Shown here: positions 35,259 to 45,545 of the stretch, piece after piece
Position numbering within the stretch: position 1 is the first letter of the stretch
How the letters are laid out: each line of letters starts with the position of its first letter
Source of the DNA: Candidatus Limnocylindrales bacterium
GTDB lineage: Bacteria; Chloroflexota; Limnocylindria; Limnocylindrales; CSP1-4
NCBI GenBank assembly: GCA_050010635.1
Contig: JBEKKR010000014.1
Span: forward strand, 2,876 to 66,875
Length of the DNA stretch: 64,000 nucleotides
Direction: 5' to 3'
The notes under the pieces: model-generated
The model's input: the letters and a program-made list of their open reading frames with translations, nothing else
The model's database searches: none
What the model was told of the DNA's origin: nothing
Translations under genes and position numbers: made by a program

Positions 35259-35694
35259 CTGGGCTGCCTCCTGCTTGTGACTCGGGGGCAGCCTAGGCCA
35301 TTTGTTGACGAGGCAATCTCCTGATGCCCCGCGGTATCGTCAGCCGGCACTTCTCTGCGGACCCGTCGAGGCGTTCGACCCCTCGGCAGCTGGTGACTCC
35401 GAGTCGGTGCGACCGCCGTCGGTCTGACGACCGGTCGCCGCCCTGGCGGCTCGCTCGGCCGCGCTTTCGCGAAGTAGGTGGACGTGGACCTTGCCCGACA
35501 CCGCACCGCGGTGTGTACCGACGATCGTCACCGAATGCCTCGCTTCGTGGGGCTCTGGGCCGCGGTCCGGCGGAACTTCGCGGCGTGTATTGCAGGCAAT
35601 CTACACGAGGCCACCTTTCGATTACCTGAATTGGGAACCCGATTCGGCCGCCGACGGCGAGATTGCGCGCACAGCGCGTCGCCCGGTTCGCGAT

Positions 35695-36320
35695 TCAGGC
35701 GTTGTCCGCGGCCAGCTTCAGCCCGAACGCGACGAGAACCATCCCCGTCGCGGCTTCGATGCCCTGCCGGATGCGCCCGCGATTCATTACGTCCGCGAGG
35801 CGGCTCGCGCCGTAGCCGTAGACCGTCAGCCAGACCAGGCCCATTCCGGCGTGAATGCAGGCCAGCGCCACCGACGTCGCGAAGACCGGCTGACCCGGCG
35901 CGATGAACTGCGGCAGGAACGTGGCGTAGAAGACGCCGACCTTCGGGTTGAGCAGATTCGTCAGCAGGCCCTGCCGGTAGGAGCCGGCCCGAGTCCGGGC
36001 GAGGTCGCCGGGCGCGGCTTCTGCGGGTCCACCGCGTATCGCGGCCCGCAACGCCAGCACACCCCGAGGAACACGAGGTACGCGGCGCCGGCCAGCTTGA
36101 GCCCCTGGTACAGCTGCGCCGACGCAGCCAGCAGCGCCGCCACGCCCAGCGACGAAGCCGCTCCCCAGACGATGCAGCCCGTGCATATCCCCGCCGCCGT
36201 GGGCACCACCGTCGGCCGGCCGCCGCGCAGCGCGTTCCGCAGCACCAGCGCCATGTCGGGCCCGGGCGCGATCGTCAGGAGTGCCGCCATGCCGATGAAC
36301 GCGATCAGCCGCGAATCCAT
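35695..36320 (-). pseudogene. LysE/RhtB-family amino-acid exporter, apparently frameshifted
   Basis: The N-terminal half (MDSRLIAFIGMAALLTIAPGPDMALVLRNALRGG...AYLVFLGV) is in one frame. The C-terminal half (LTNLLNPKVGVFYATFLPQFI...LVAFGLKLA) is in another, switching near 36060-36080. Confidence 0.55.
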
Positions 36321-36382: not shown

Positions 36383-37708
36383 CTACTTTGCGGCCCCGTA
36401 GGAGCCCGCGAGGATGACGCCACGGGGCAGCACCAGGAAGGTCCGGAGATCGGGAACCGGGCCGTTGCCGGCGATCGGGGTCCAAGTCTTGCCGTCGTAC
36501 GACGTCCAGATCCTGCCGTTGCTCTTGACCGCCACGAAGACGGTGCCGTTCGAGGCGATTACGCCGTCCGGTCCCTCGCTGCATTCGCCCTGGCCGCATA
36601 CTGCCGCGCCGAGAGGTCCGTAGTTCGTCGCCTTAGCCCAGGTCTTGCCGCCATCGGTGGAGACGTCGAGTCCGACGTAGCCCGGGATCAGTCGCGGGTT
36701 CTCGTGCACAAGGATGCCGTCTCTCCCGAAGACGAGCGCGTCGGCATAAGCCCAGGTCCCTGTGGACTTCCATTTCCGACCGTCGTCGGACCACCACAGG
36801 CCACCTTTGCCTATCTGGCTTGCCCCGACCGGGCCTGAGCGTCCCGTGACGCCGGTCACATCAAGCGCATCGAATCGGAAGTCCGCGCCCTTCGCCTGGC
36901 TGTCGGAAAGGCCGCCCATTACAAAGAAACGGTTGTTCCCCGACTGGACCTGCGGACCGACGTCGTCCCAGGCGATCCCCGGCTCAACTTCGATCGGGGT
37001 CCAGCTGATACCGTCGGTCGAGAAGGCAACGCTGAACGTCGATGTCGCGAACTTGCCAGCACCGTTGAGGGTGTGCCCGGTTGCCACCAGACCTGCCGAC
37101 GTTCCGGCGATGGAGTCCACGAATGCCAGGCCAGACAGAGCTCCGACGATGTGCCATTGCACACCGTCGGAGCTGGCCCAAACCATCTGCGTAGAGCCCG
37201 TCGCGGAAGGATCGCCCGCCACGGCCACCAGGCCCGCCGCGCATGCCGCCACGAGCACCCTCGGCGCGACGATCGCGGTGACCTGCGTCCACGTCTGGCC
37301 GTCTGCGGAAGTCCAGACGAAGGCGTTCGAATTGCCGTTCGTCGTCCCGTAGACCACGTAGCCGTGCTGCCAGGCGAGAAGCTGAGCGCCTGTTCGCCAG
37401 GGGTCGGCGGTCGCCAGAGGATTGTCGGCTGGAAGCCGGCTCCACGAGAAGCCCGTCCAATTCGACGCAACGCCGACAGTCGTGGATGAGGCAGCGTAGG
37501 GCGGCAGAGTTGGAGTTGCGGTCCCAAGCGAAGGCGAAACCGCCGTGAAGGAGACCGCAACAGGCGATGGCAACGCTTCGGACGTCGGCGACGGGGAAGC
37601 GCCGGCCACGCTGCATCCGGTGACAAGACCCACCGCCGCAAGGCTGATCGCCAGGCCGCTTATGAGTCCGAGTCGCGATCGGGTGTAGTGAGCCGCGATG
37701 GGATCCAT
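36383..37708 (-). CDS. BNR/Asp-box repeat (beta-propeller) lipoprotein
   Basis: Lipobox VTGC, then several S-x-D-G-x-x-W type Asp-box repeats (TSADGQTWT, SSDGVQWH, STDGISWT, STDGGKTW, SYDGKTWT). Confidence 0.65.
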   Translation of the reverse strand: MDPIAAHYTRSRLGLISGLAISLAAVGLVTGCSVAGASPSPTSEALPSPVAVSFTAVSPSLGTATPTLPPYAASSTTVGVASNWTGFSWSRLPADNPLATADPWRTGAQLLAWQHGYVVYGTTNGNSNAFVWTSADGQTWTQVTAIVAPRVLVAACAAGLVAVAGDPSATGSTQMVWASSDGVQWHIVGALSGLAFVDSIAGTSAGLVATGHTLNGAGKFATSTFSVAFSTDGISWTPIEVEPGIAWDDVGPQVQSGNNRFFVMGGLSDSQAKGADFRFDALDVTGVTGRSGPVGASQIGKGGLWWSDDGRKWKSTGTWAYADALVFGRDGILVHENPRLIPGYVGLDVSTDGGKTWAKATNYGPLGAAVCGQGECSEGPDGVIASNGTVFVAVKSNGRIWTSYDGKTWTPIAGNGPVPDLRTFLVLPRGVILAGSYGAAK

Positions 37709-41811: not shown

Positions 41812-43857
41812 CTACCCAACAGGATCGATGACGACCCACTTTCCGTACCACTCGGTCGTACCGACCTGGCCGTCGATGGGATCCTGGTACGGTGAGTCGG
41901 TCTCGAGGTACGGGGAGAACTGGATCGACGCGCTGCCGGAGCGCCAGTCGGCAACGTAGACCCAAGTGTCGCGATAGCCGGCAGATTGCAGGGTATCTGT
42001 CAGGTCCACGCCCATGATCGTGAAGTTCGTCGAGCCTGTGCTCGGATCGTCCCCCGTGACCATGTAGCCGACGACGTACTGCGAATGGCGGCCGGCGTGG
42101 GCAAGGATCCCCACCGGCTTGTGGTACCGGGCCAGAGCCGAAACCACCGCCTTGGCGGCCGTGTCGAAGGATCCGTAGGACGAGTCGCGATAGACCGCGG
42201 CGGTCACGCTGCCCCAGCCGTAGTAGTTGAGGGCATTCCGCCAGCCGTGCGGGTCCGTGCCGGCCGAGGTCGTGAGCATCGTCATGTTGGCGCGCTCGTA
42301 GGCCAGGATCGCCTCCTGATCCGTATAAGAGGTGGTCGGCTGCCAGACCAGGCCGGAGGCCGAGCCGGTGTAGTAGATGTCGTTCAGCATCGATGCCGTC
42401 GCCGCGGCAGTGCACGCCGTTAGATCGGGATCCTGCCAGCGGTCCGCCCGCGGATCCGAGATGTCCAGGGTCCACGTGGCGGGCGCGCTCGTGTCGGGCG
42501 TCCAGTAGCCGGTGATGTCGAGAGACAGGTTGGCCGTGGAGCCGACCTCTCCGGCCCACTCGAGAGCTACGTGGTTGGACGTGCCGATGGTGACGTCGAA
42601 CCCGTTGGCCTCCGAGTGGCCGGCCGAGGCATTGACCGTGGAGGTCTTGGGTGCGGCCACTATCTCAGGCGTGATCAGGGCCCAGCCGTTGGTCGAAGGC
42701 GTGAGCAGGGTCAGGTTGCCGCTGATGCCGGCGGCACCGGTCGGGACGCCGGGGAGCGTGAAGAGCTGGGCCGTCCGGCTCGGGAAGGGGCCTGTGATGC
42801 CCAGGTTCTTGGAGGAGTCCAGGACCCGCGACGGGGCGATGGGGTAGTAGTACAGACCATCCGGACCTGACGTGAAGTAGCCGGTCACGTCGAAGATGAC
42901 ATCCGCGCTCGAACCGGTCGTGCCGCACCACACCACCGAGAGGCTGCCCCTGTATAGAGCCACGGTGACCCCGTTGGCGACGTTGGTCCAGGCCGCCACG
43001 TTGGCCGTGGAGGTCGAAGGGAAGGTGCTCATGGTCGGACCAAGCGCGACGTAGCCGAGACTGGTGGCGTTGGTGACGGTCACGTTGCCGGTGACCGCGA
43101 CGGCGGTCGATGGCACCTGGGGACTCGACCAGCCAAGGCCGGTCACCCCGACCACCGGGAAGCTCTTGACGACCCGGTTGGGCAGCTTCGTGAGCGGGCC
43201 GATGTGGGTCACCCCGCCGTAGGTGGGTCTCGTGTCGAGGACGCGCCCGGGGGTGACCACCGTGTGGTACGTGGCCCCACCCGCTCCGGGCGTGAAGTAG
43301 CCGGTCAGATCGAAGATGAGATCGGTGGTGGCGCCCGCGGACGGAGTGCGATAGACCGCCGAGAGGTAGCCGTCAGTGGCGAGGCCGAGCGTCACGTTAT
43401 TGGCCCGCGTGTCACCCGGCACGAAGTTGAGCGAGCTGGTGGCCCCGTCGGGGGTCACCGCCGGGCCCAGATCGATGACGCCGGGCGCGGTCTCGTACAC
43501 GATCGTGAGGTTGCCCGTTATAGCGACCGCGTTGGCCGGGATGGCCGGTGCGCTTCCGCCTCCGACGTAGCGGGCTCCGGCCACGGCAAACCGCCGGACC
43601 GTGCCGGCCACGAACTTGCCCGACAGGCCGATGTTGGTGGGATTGCCGCTCGGGATCGTCGGGCGCGTGTCGAGGATGCGCCGCGGTGGGATGGCCGTGT
43701 AGGTCGCCCCGCTCGTCGGCGCCGCCGCGGCCCAGCTGCGGGACGAAGATCCCGCGCCCGCGCCGTACGATCCGGTCGAGCCGGCCAGAGACGGCGCCAC
43801 TCCGATCACGAGCAGCGCCAGCAGGGTCTGGACCGCAGCGACGGCGACCCGGCCCAT
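41812..43857 (-). CDS. Secreted protein with three tandem ~140-aa repeat modules and a C-terminal papain/C39-like putative cysteine-peptidase domain
   Basis: Signal peptide MGRVAVAAVQTLLALLVIGVAPSLAGS. Repeats begin RILDTRP / RVLDTRP / RVLDSS, with conserved AV(A/T)GN(L/V)T and D(L/V)IFD(L/V)TGY(F/W)T blocks. C-terminal ~180 aa carry CTAAATASML (Cys) and HAGRHSQYVVGY (His-aromatic), spaced as in papain-fold/C39-like peptidases. The six-frame ORF to 44097 over-extends; start set at ATG 43855-43857. Confidence 0.65.
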   Translation of the reverse strand: MGRVAVAAVQTLLALLVIGVAPSLAGSTGSYGAGAGSSSRSWAAAAPTSGATYTAIPPRRILDTRPTIPSGNPTNIGLSGKFVAGTVRRFAVAGARYVGGGSAPAIPANAVAITGNLTIVYETAPGVIDLGPAVTPDGATSSLNFVPGDTRANNVTLGLATDGYLSAVYRTPSAGATTDLIFDLTGYFTPGAGGATYHTVVTPGRVLDTRPTYGGVTHIGPLTKLPNRVVKSFPVVGVTGLGWSSPQVPSTAVAVTGNVTVTNATSLGYVALGPTMSTFPSTSTANVAAWTNVANGVTVALYRGSLSVVWCGTTGSSADVIFDVTGYFTSGPDGLYYYPIAPSRVLDSSKNLGITGPFPSRTAQLFTLPGVPTGAAGISGNLTLLTPSTNGWALITPEIVAAPKTSTVNASAGHSEANGFDVTIGTSNHVALEWAGEVGSTANLSLDITGYWTPDTSAPATWTLDISDPRADRWQDPDLTACTAAATASMLNDIYYTGSASGLVWQPTTSYTDQEAILAYERANMTMLTTSAGTDPHGWRNALNYYGWGSVTAAVYRDSSYGSFDTAAKAVVSALARYHKPVGILAHAGRHSQYVVGYMVTGDDPSTGSTNFTIMGVDLTDTLQSAGYRDTWVYVADWRSGSASIQFSPYLETDSPYQDPIDGQVGTTEWYGKWVVIDPVG

Positions 43858-44138
43858 CACCCTCGGAATCGGAAACCGTCCCGGCCGACCCGCTGCTGCC
43901 CGACGATACGCCATTCGCGAATCCATCCCACGACGGATGGCCCACAACCTTGCCGGCGCCTGGACCATCCGGTACGGGAAGCGTCGGTGGCCAACTCGCT
44001 CCCGTTGAACCGGTGGATCGACTTTCCAGTCCACCGGAGGCACGCAGATGCCCCGACCACCCCCGCCCACAATGATTGGTACGAACGCTGTTGGCAACCC
44101 TAGATTCGACGCCGGTTCGACGCCATCACCTGATCGTC

Positions 44139-44525
44139 ATGCTCGCCTTCTCGTTCGTGATGCGGCGGCTCCGGGCGGCGCCCGTTTCTCCGGCCGGCGT
44201 CCTGCTCGCCTTTGCCCTCGGCACGATCGCCTGCGTCGCGATCGGCGTCTTCCTTGGCGCCGTCCTGCCCAATGCCCAGGCCGCCCAGGCGGTCGGCCTG
44301 CTCCTCTTCTTCCTGTCCGAGATGACCTCCGGAGTGGGCCCGCCGAGGGAGGTGCTTCCGGACACGATGAGGCAGGCGGCTCTGGCGCTGCCGCTGACGC
44401 ATGTCGCCATTTCCATGCAGGATCCCTGGATCGGGCGGGGGTCGAGCCTCGCCGAACTCTGGATCGTCGCCGCCATCGCGATCGTCTGCGCCGCCCTCGC
44501 CTACCGCTCGTTCCGCTGGGAGTAG
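44139..44525 (+). pseudogene. 3'-terminal remnant of an ABC-2 family permease gene (last ~3 TM helices only)
   Basis: Translation ends ...QAAQAVGLLLFFLSEMTSGVGPPREVLPDTMRQAALALPLTHVAISMQDPW..., the typical C-terminal helices of ABC-2 permeases. No N-terminal two-thirds of the gene exists; the upstream space is occupied by the oppositely oriented secreted-protein gene. Confidence 0.5.
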
Positions 44526-44717
44526 CGGCCGGTTACGTCCTGCAAGTTCACCAGATCGTCCTAGGCCTTGGGTCGTGATCCGAGAGACGTTCGTGCCACG
44601 CAGCGCAGGGACGAATGTGTCGTAGGCGGGGGCACATGCCCGCCATGAAGTCGGGGCCGCCAAGTTCCGAGTGACCTTCGCAAGCCTTCGTCAGGGTCGC
44701 ATTGCCCGGTCACTCGC

Positions 44718-45545
44718 ATGCCGCGCCGTCACCCTCATCTCCTCCTGCCCGGGAATCCATGGGAGGTGTGTGCAGGCACAGAGGACCCGCTCTATGTCCG
44801 AACCACGATCGCTCAGCCCGTCGCCGAACAGCGGCCCCCGTCGCTTCCGAGACGGCGTCCCTTTTCCACGAGCCGGGGGCTACTGGCGGCGTCGGCACTC
44901 GCGTGTCTGCTCATAGCGGCGGGCTCAACCTCTGCGGCATCGCCCGAGCCGGTCGAGAAGGGCCCAATCGCGCAGGTACCCGTCTCGGCGGATTACTCCC
45001 CGTTGCCGGTCTCCTCGCCGACCCAGACCGCGCCGACTCCAGCATCGCCTATGGCCGTGCGGTCGGCGCCACAGGGTATCGCCGCCCCCGAGGGGTTCGT
45101 GGTACGGCCGTCGCCGCAGAGCCGGACCGCGGAGCCGCCGAACGCCGTGGTATTTGGAGGCCGGAACCGCTTTGCGATTCCGACGCTGGGCATCGACTCG
45201 ACGGTCGGCACCACGAGCTGTGGAGTGCTGATCCCCAACGGCATCTGGTATTGGCCGTGTGCGGGCAAGAACAACCTCTACTTGACGGGACATGCGTGGG
45301 GAGCGTTCGCCCCGATACACGACGGCTACCACTCCGGATTGCTGAGCGCCGGCCTGACCGCGTCGTATGCGGACGGCGCCGGCGTAGTCCACAGATACCG
45401 ACTGCTCTGGGTAGAGGATCTGCCCGTGGCGGTTTGGGGCCGGGGCGCCGCGTGGGCTTCCACCGCGGGCCCGGTCATCACGCTTCAGACATGCGACGGC
45501 GCAACGGATAACTACCGAATCATCGTTCGGTTCGTCCCCGCCTGA
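44718..45545 (+). CDS. Sortase-family transpeptidase (class E/F-like)
   Basis: N-terminal TM anchor, catalytic His in NLYLTGHAWG, and the TLxTC motif (VITLQTCDG) followed by the conserved Arg (YRIIVRFVP). Confidence 0.7.
   Translation: MPRRHPHLLLPGNPWEVCAGTEDPLYVRTTIAQPVAEQRPPSLPRRRPFSTSRGLLAASALACLLIAAGSTSAASPEPVEKGPIAQVPVSADYSPLPVSSPTQTAPTPASPMAVRSAPQGIAAPEGFVVRPSPQSRTAEPPNAVVFGGRNRFAIPTLGIDSTVGTTSCGVLIPNGIWYWPCAGKNNLYLTGHAWGAFAPIHDGYHSGLLSAGLTASYADGAGVVHRYRLLWVEDLPVAVWGRGAAWASTAGPVITLQTCDGATDNYRIIVRFVPA

Follow-up and report, generated by a model that had tools for sequence, protein, structure and literature searches.

A predicted exoprotein of Limnocylindria in which a triple jelly-roll module precedes a C39-like cysteine peptidase domain

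Family C39 proper, as defined in MEROPS, is an N-terminal cytoplasmic domain of ABC (ATP-binding cassette) exporters that cleaves double-glycine leaders, and Cwp84 of Clostridioides difficile is a CWB2-anchored cysteine protease of papain fold that processes the S-layer precursor. The protein described here shares features with both; it is encoded by a gene on the minus strand (41812..43857) of a 64,000-nucleotide stretch of contig JBEKKR010000014.1, referred to below as the window, from an uncultured member of the Chloroflexota, class Limnocylindria, of soil or freshwater. The order of its parts is a signal peptide, three jelly-roll repeats (the trio) and a C39-like cysteine peptidase domain. 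With regard to the repeats, a described structure of related fold is the C-terminal tip of the 'mosaic adhesive trimeric' fibre Bd2133 of Bdellovibrio bacteriovorus, a trimeric sandwich of novel type that carries ions on its three-fold axis (PMC10769870).

The reading preferred here, to which a probability of about 0.6 is assigned, is that the product is a Sec-exported protein in which a pseudo-trimeric trio binding the cell's own envelope would be joined to an active extracellular C39-like thiol hydrolase, the gene itself being a mosaic. The gene joins an unannotated clan-CA family to an unannotated, lineage-wide triple jelly-roll module, both of known kinds.

The gene is complete, with 681 codons and a stop codon, as taken from the open reading frame (ORF) list and its translation. 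A ribosome-binding-like motif GAGGG is found 4 nt 5' of the ATG, and this start codon is backed by the N-terminal alignment with the orthologue P0005. The signal peptide (approximately residues 1–26, MGRVAVAAVQTLLALLVIGVAPSLAG; 43780..43857, minus strand) was assigned by reading of the sequence and by hydrophobicity calculation: the N-terminus MGRVAVAAVQTLLALLVIGVAPSLAGS displays the Sec-type features of a positive residue, a hydrophobic core (maximum 12-residue Kyte-Doolittle value of 2.46) and an SLA/G cleavage-type motif, by which the product is predicted to be Sec-exported. The original prediction, made from the DNA alone, had proposed the same 681-residue product with a signal peptide, and the ORF, translation and hydrophobicity agree with it. 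A near-identical protein (P0001, with Arg in place of Thr441) is encoded on a 137-kb metagenome contig of the Joint Genome Institute (JGI), Ga0480581_000147 (L001). Over 22 kb (window positions 31813-53856) this contig is 99.5% identical to the window, with 100 mismatches and 5 gaps, and judged from this alignment it represents a close strain variant of the window and not an identical record. No second copy of the trio or of the C39-like domain was detected by tblastn in the 64-kb window, and a promoter and terminator scan around the gene yielded nothing informative.

A triple jelly-roll module of exoproteins

The three tandem repeats, as originally proposed, were confirmed by BLASTP comparison of the repeats with one another (E-values of 9e-26, 3e-15 and 7e-17; 28–41% identity), and the motifs proposed for them are present. 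Repeat 1 (residues 52–195; 43273..43704) and repeat 2 (residues 196–335; 42853..43272) are predicted jelly-roll beta-sandwiches, and repeat 3 (residues 336–455; 42493..42852) is a shorter variant with the end LSLDITGYW; all three lie on the minus strand, the latter two being delimited by BLASTP and modelling. In a comparison of repeat types, the repeats measured 143, 139 and 123 residues in length and were 31–43% identical to one another. They open with RILDTR at position 60, RVLDTR at 205 and RVLDSS at 344, while the motif A(I/V)TGN(L/V)T occurs at 112 and 254, and D(L/V)IFD(L/V)TGYFT at 179 and 319. The model of residues 50–455 is all-beta, with a predicted local distance difference test (pLDDT) value of 90.9 and a predicted template modelling score (pTM) of 0.88, and contains well-ordered hairpins in which the closing strand of a repeat pairs with the opening strand of the repeat that follows it. 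Since the pTM of 0.88 indicates that the arrangement of the repeats is confidently placed and fixed, the three repeats are modelled as one rigid unit of three jelly rolls. Among the matches in a viral library were the C-terminal domain of BclA, C1q and the jelly rolls of tail fibres.

The distribution of the module is much wider than that of the window protein. The full-length protein matched 1,637 protein clusters, in most of which only the repeat region aligned (55–91% identity), the remainder of each such protein being different. A hidden Markov model census found exactly three repeats in 111 of the 120 top matches and six in two of them. At least 497 genome-assembly loci were matched by the trio, and ORFs were counted in 80 kept loci, comprising 119 repeat-bearing ORFs; 106 of these ORFs carried three repeats, and in 104 the trio ended at the stop codon. 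The final ~400 residues of a trio protein are thus usually the trio itself. The relatives of the repeat module, which had first been likened to modules of high-GC Gram-positive bacteria, were recovered from Chloroflexota/Limnocylindria, to which all of the kept loci belong except one (L076, DATKBC010000068.1), whose assembly carries the label Pleomorphomonadaceae (Alphaproteobacteria), an exception for which mis-binning or horizontal transfer may be responsible. Single assemblies were seen to contain nine or more distinct trio genes, and these are often arranged in tandem. The regions upstream of the trio contained 44 partner Pfam families, among them fn3, PKD, GH18, SpoIID, FlgD_ig, PQQ propellers, S8 subtilases and papain C1, as well as RCC1, Kelch, GSDH, ice-binding-like and Ig-like domains, and the partner proteins start with N-terminal signal or anchor segments. 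The trio is a standard exoprotein module of Limnocylindria, with nearly always exactly three copies of the repeat.

The tandem arrangement is most evident in five loci (L005, L006, L007, L020 and L075), in which runs of three to four genes end in a trio and differ in their N-terminal domains; such arrays suggest local duplication and domain shuffling.

The window protein, with its trio close to the N-terminus and followed by another domain, represents a minority architecture. The trio is also internal or N-proximal, with domains downstream of it, in L043, L044, L053, L063 and L069, and among the few ORFs with a domain after the trio, one such tail is a C39-like domain. The view of the repeats as a 'stalk' bearing a peptidase 'head' is not supported, since they are modelled as a rigid unit that is itself a reused module, normally located at the extreme C-terminus. 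That location, shared by so many unrelated exoproteins, is also what would be expected of a sorting domain, and the trio might accordingly be an export or sorting signal similar to the C-terminal domain of the type IX secretion system, or a self-assembling domain of a surface-layer lattice, instead of a ligand-binding anchor. This explanation is regarded as improbable, because ~400 residues would be very large for a sorting tag, and position-dependent signals do not tolerate the internal or N-proximal placement seen in the window protein and the five loci just named. Furthermore, Sec signal peptides are already present on trio proteins, and no dedicated secretion genes are linked to the trio at the loci of the window gene, P0002 or P0005.

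A stronger rival concerns the nature of the ligand. The trio could be a carbohydrate-binding module (CBM) for substrate targeting, in which case the protein would be a freely secreted scavenging or antagonistic protease, directed, like an adhesin, at an external polymer or a foreign surface. The jelly rolls of CBM36, CBM35, CBM6, CBM22 and PNGase F indeed match the fold of the repeats, albeit weakly (Z of about 6-7, with 8–15% identity). The trio has, however, no CBM match in Pfam, and most of its partners (fibronectin-type and PKD domains, beta-propellers, subtilases, papain, Kelch, RCC1) are not carbohydrate-active. In addition, the near-identical module (87–94% between the window trio and that of P0002) is carried by unrelated cargos, which, together with the presence of nine or more trio genes in one assembly, fits better with one common ligand of the producer itself, though not decisively. 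The CBM role is thus held to be doubtful, and it is counted with non-protease chemistry (see below) as one of the two main rivals, the sorting-signal explanation and the one based on the flanking genes being less likely.

The C-terminal papain-like domain

The C-terminal domain comprises residues 456–681 (41815..42492, minus strand), i.e. about 226 residues and not the ~180 estimated at first. The fold search with the domain model gave C39 peptidase domains as the top match and as several of the others (3erv, 6mpz, 5xe8 and 8vp3), followed in rank by UfSP, staphopain, streptopain and cathepsins; the modelled domain displays the papain-like alpha+beta fold of clan CA. The predicted nucleophile Cys482 (in CTAAATASML; codon 42412..42414, minus strand) and the predicted general base His591 (in HAGRHSQYVVGY; codon 42085..42087, minus strand) were identified from the domain model and from their invariance in the homologues, both residues being conserved throughout 49 close homologues and 17 aligned sequences that include distant ones. 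In the model, Cys482 is domain residue 28 and opens the core helix (28–43), and His591 is domain residue 137 and opens a central strand (137–148). Gln475, located seven residues upstream of the cysteine, is nearly invariant and is a candidate for the oxyanion-hole residue. Asp604 is nearly invariant as well; Asp621 is invariant among the close homologues, but its place is taken by Ser or Gly in a number of distant members. From this alignment the catalytic residues are likely to be Gln475, Cys482, His591 and either Asp604 or Asp621.

The original prediction had named a Cys/His pair and a papain/C39-like peptidase. Both residues were found and are invariant, but the conserved histidine of the motif is the second one, H591, the first (H587) being variable. 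The peptidase assignment is supported at the level of fold, and none of the observations that had been listed as damaging to it, such as a lack of structural similarity or homologues without the Cys/His pair, tells against it. It is proposed on this basis that residues 456–681 belong to a new, unannotated family of C39-like cysteine peptidase domains within clan CA (papain-like).

The family is compact, with 733 clusters at E ≤ 0.01, and has 194 representatives among 1.84 billion proteins. Most members begin with a signal peptide or a transmembrane segment, followed by an Ala/Pro/Thr-rich linker and then by the peptidase domain, a layout which argues for an extracellular location of the latter. 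The domain also has an additional C-terminal elaboration of ~60 residues and a motif specific to the family, GSDPxGW. With respect to PF13529 (Peptidase_C39_2), the window domain was not matched even at E ≤ 10, and distant members of the family scored 13.3–21.6 bits (E-values of 3.5e-4 to 0.12), all below the gathering threshold of 24 bits. The standalone homologues of the domain, seen at three loci, have no conserved neighbours, and the literature on C39-like or YvpB functions offered only tangential material.

The domain might be a different enzyme of papain fold, with the envelope or small molecules as its target. Candidates are a transpeptidase or amidase (phytochelatin-synthase-like, or an NlpC/P60-like hydrolase of peptidoglycan stem peptides), and also acyltransferases, lyases and glycosidases. 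This is thought unlikely: it is the C39 peptidase domains that head the fold matches, the weak Pfam signal is likewise directed to Peptidase_C39_2, and the order Gln-Cys-His is the arrangement of peptidases. An isopeptidase or amidase acting on wall peptides would, moreover, still be a thiol hydrolase and hence fall within the reading preferred here.

Mosaic structure of the gene and its neighbours

The segments of the window gene have different closest relatives. The signal peptide and the peptidase domain are 69% and 89% identical, respectively, to those of P0005, whereas the repeats are only 36–47% identical to the repeats of that protein. The best counterparts of repeats 1, 2 and 3 are instead found, position for position, in the C-terminal trio of P0002 (94%, 90% and 87% identity), a paralogue with an S53 peptidase encoded at an unrelated locus, whose trio as a whole is 91% identical to that of the window and which ends directly after the motif of repeat 3. 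The same division is seen in the nucleotide sequences, where codons ~52-452 match L002 at 86.6% and codons ~446-681 match L004, the locus of P0005, at 87.7%, the 5' end matching L004 at 73%. Furthermore, the window trio is heterotypic, while relatives that carry the peptidase domain have homotypic repeats, 50–87% identical and ~126 residues each. As shown by these alignments, the gene is a recombinant mosaic, and cassette replacement is the simplest explanation of the segment matches: the ancestor consisted of a signal peptide, homotypic repeats and the C39-like domain, and its repeats were replaced by the heterotypic trio cassette of a paralogue.

In L002 (6481-12201), the gene of P0002 lies directly upstream of genes for a sugar-nucleotide epimerase/dehydratase, a nucleotidyltransferase and a GT4 glycosyltransferase; this cluster, a single observation, could be devoted to envelope-glycan biosynthesis.

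On the other side of the start codon the plus strand carries a remnant of an ABC-2 permease gene (44139..44525) and a divergent gene of the sortase family (44718..45545), both of which had been recognised in the original prediction. The remnant, encoding 128 residues from its ATG (the JGI call here is a gene of 144 residues), was identified by Pfam, where the match is confined to the C-terminal half of two models, namely positions 112-205 of 211 of ABC2_membrane (E 1.9e-9) and positions 235-346 of 347 of ABC2_membrane_3 (E 6e-10). The distance between it and the peptidase gene's start codon is 281 bp, the 21 bp given earlier being an arithmetic error, and no ATPase gene is found near it. The ABC-2 fragment, which differs by one amino acid between the window and the JGI contig, lies between two divergently transcribed genes; the same position in L004 is taken by an unrelated ORF of 199 residues.

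The sortase-family gene, of which the JGI call covers only the last 164 residues (45051..45545), scores below threshold with the Pfam model Sortase (E 0.071; 13.3 bits with a threshold of 26.6; positions 3-121 of 125). It possesses the motifs LTGH and TLQTC and a downstream Arg, and its many homologues (E 1e-25 to 1e-61) carry PF04203, so that from motifs and homologues it is assigned to the sortase family. A copy with 65% identity lies beside the orthologous peptidase gene in L004. The window protein lacks an LPXTG-type motif, as had been stated before, and a C-terminal membrane anchor, its C-terminus being ...GKWVVIDPVG. It was rejected as a sortase substrate on account of the missing LPXTG motif, and a bacteriocin-type C39/ABC exporter was rejected on account of the wrong topology and the wrong type of transporter.

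The sortase-family gene, the ABC-2 fragment and the peptidase gene could nevertheless form a functional unit for processing, export or attachment, given that here, as at the orthologous L004, a sortase-like gene lies next to the peptidase gene in divergent orientation, and that ABC exporters are classically accompanied by C39 domains. Such a unit is considered very improbable. The peptidase protein bears neither of the attachment signals just mentioned; the ABC-2 gene retains just its C-terminal half, has no ATPase, is not an exporter of the C39-fused bacteriocin type and is missing from L004; and neither sortase nor ABC neighbours occur at L063 or beside the standalone homologues. Since L004 is a close relative that also shares the DEAD helicase and PAS kinase genes with the window, the adjacency of the sortase-like gene is likely to be inherited synteny. 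The functional meaning once attached to these flanks is therefore not supported, the adjacency being confined to the syntenic L004, and the ABC-2 remnant and the sortase-family gene are treated as probable bystanders with no demonstrable link to the peptidase.

Farther from the gene, two adjacent gene calls of 119 and 58 residues on the minus strand (window ~35690-36320; L001 17537-18164) both match Pfam LysE and look like a split or frameshifted gene of a LysE-family exporter. A predicted protein of 403 residues without a Pfam match (window 36383-37708, minus strand; L001 16150-17361) is encoded between the PAS histidine kinase gene and the LysE fragments.

Proposed function and comparison with known systems

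In the reading favoured here, the trio would form a pseudo-trimer within a single chain. It would recognise one conserved ligand of the producer's envelope, such as a wall glycan or a surface layer, and would keep its cargo on, or direct it to, the surface of a cell that is probably monoderm. The ligand is most likely to be on the producer's own envelope because the Chloroflexi are inferred to be monoderm (PMC6169038), and by analogy with other terminal repeat modules a role of the trio in cell-surface anchoring or targeting may be inferred. The peptidase domain would be enzymatically active outside the cell, as a thiol endopeptidase or amidase. Its substrate would probably be a conserved component of the envelope, so that the enzyme might act in the maturation of surface proteins, in the manner of Cwp84, or on the peptide stems of the wall.

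Several results weigh against this reading. The whole window protein was assigned to no family by Pfam or NCBIfam, and neither database has a family that matches the peptidase domain at threshold; searches of PDB sequences with the protein itself, with a profile of 49 sequences and with a profile enriched in distant members gave nothing meaningful. The third catalytic residue is likely one of two candidates, Asp604 or Asp621, as judged from the alignment. No conserved neighbourhood that could point to any substrate is present at the loci of the window gene, P0002 and P0005 or at those of the three standalone homologues. With regard to the trio, a jelly-roll fold is just as characteristic of CBMs whose ligands are external polysaccharides. 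Moreover, relatives with homotypic repeats occur with one, two, three or six copies, and consequently an obligate pseudo-trimer is not universal: among these 'type B' proteins, P0063 (1063 residues, containing SpoIID) has six copies, P0005 and P0051 have two and P0135 has one. The heterotypic 'type A' trio, to which the window module belongs, had three copies in each example examined.

A more modest conclusion, which concerns the window gene alone, is that it encodes a secreted cysteine-peptidase-like protein. A bolder proposal, possible but tentative, is that the trio represents an unrecognised surface-display system of Limnocylindria, in which a pseudo-trimer resembling a trimeric fibre tip in structure would dock dozens of exoproteins per genome on one envelope ligand as a third independent three-repeat anchor beside SLH and CWB2, its cassettes being swapped by recombination and the C39-like enzyme serving as a dedicated protease for the processing of surface proteins or of the wall.

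In soils and lakes, Limnocylindria form an abundant and largely uncultured class, of whose envelope biology almost nothing is known. Two large and well-delimited domain families without Pfam or NCBIfam annotation are now defined in this lineage: an extracellular family of papain/C39-fold thiol enzymes, of predicted activity, with an invariant Cys/His pair, and a three-jelly-roll module that occurs in more than 1,600 protein clusters and marks much of the secreted proteome. If the trio is indeed an envelope anchor, it would provide a handle for the prediction and purification of surface proteins of these organisms and could be used as a new surface-display scaffold. The clean cassette swap in the window gene, in turn, illustrates how the exoproteins of Limnocylindria diversify.

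Of the systems introduced at the outset, C39 proper differs from the window domain in its position and fusion, the latter being located C-terminally in an exoprotein with a signal peptide and not fused to an ABC ATPase or transporter. The modelled papain-like fold is nonetheless shared with C39-like peptidases (PF13529; PDB 3erv from Bacillus anthracis) and with the C39 domains of PCAT and ComA (6mpz, 5xe8, 8vp3), from which it departs in sequence, with only 13–16% identity to these PDB matches, and, as regards PCAT and ComA, in its extracellular location without an ABC transporter. The spacing between the glutamine and the cysteine is seven residues in the window domain and six in C39 peptidases. 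The resemblance of the trio to the Bd2133 tip (PDB 8ok3 and 8ond) lies in the beta-sandwich fold; concerning the three-fold packing, the pTM of 0.88, the ordered hairpins and the fixed number of three copies are to be set against the homotypic relatives with one, two or six copies. With the triple SLH and triple CWB2 anchors of Firmicutes the trio has in common that exactly three repeats make up one unit, are placed at a protein terminus and are shared by many paralogous exoproteins whose functional domains differ. The repeats themselves are all-beta jelly rolls of ~120-143 residues, unrelated to CWB2 and SLH repeats in sequence or fold, and since they match neither SLH (PF00395) nor CWB2 (PF04122) in Pfam, the likeness to these anchors, and with them to the CWB2-borne papain-fold protease, is one of functional analogy and not of family membership.

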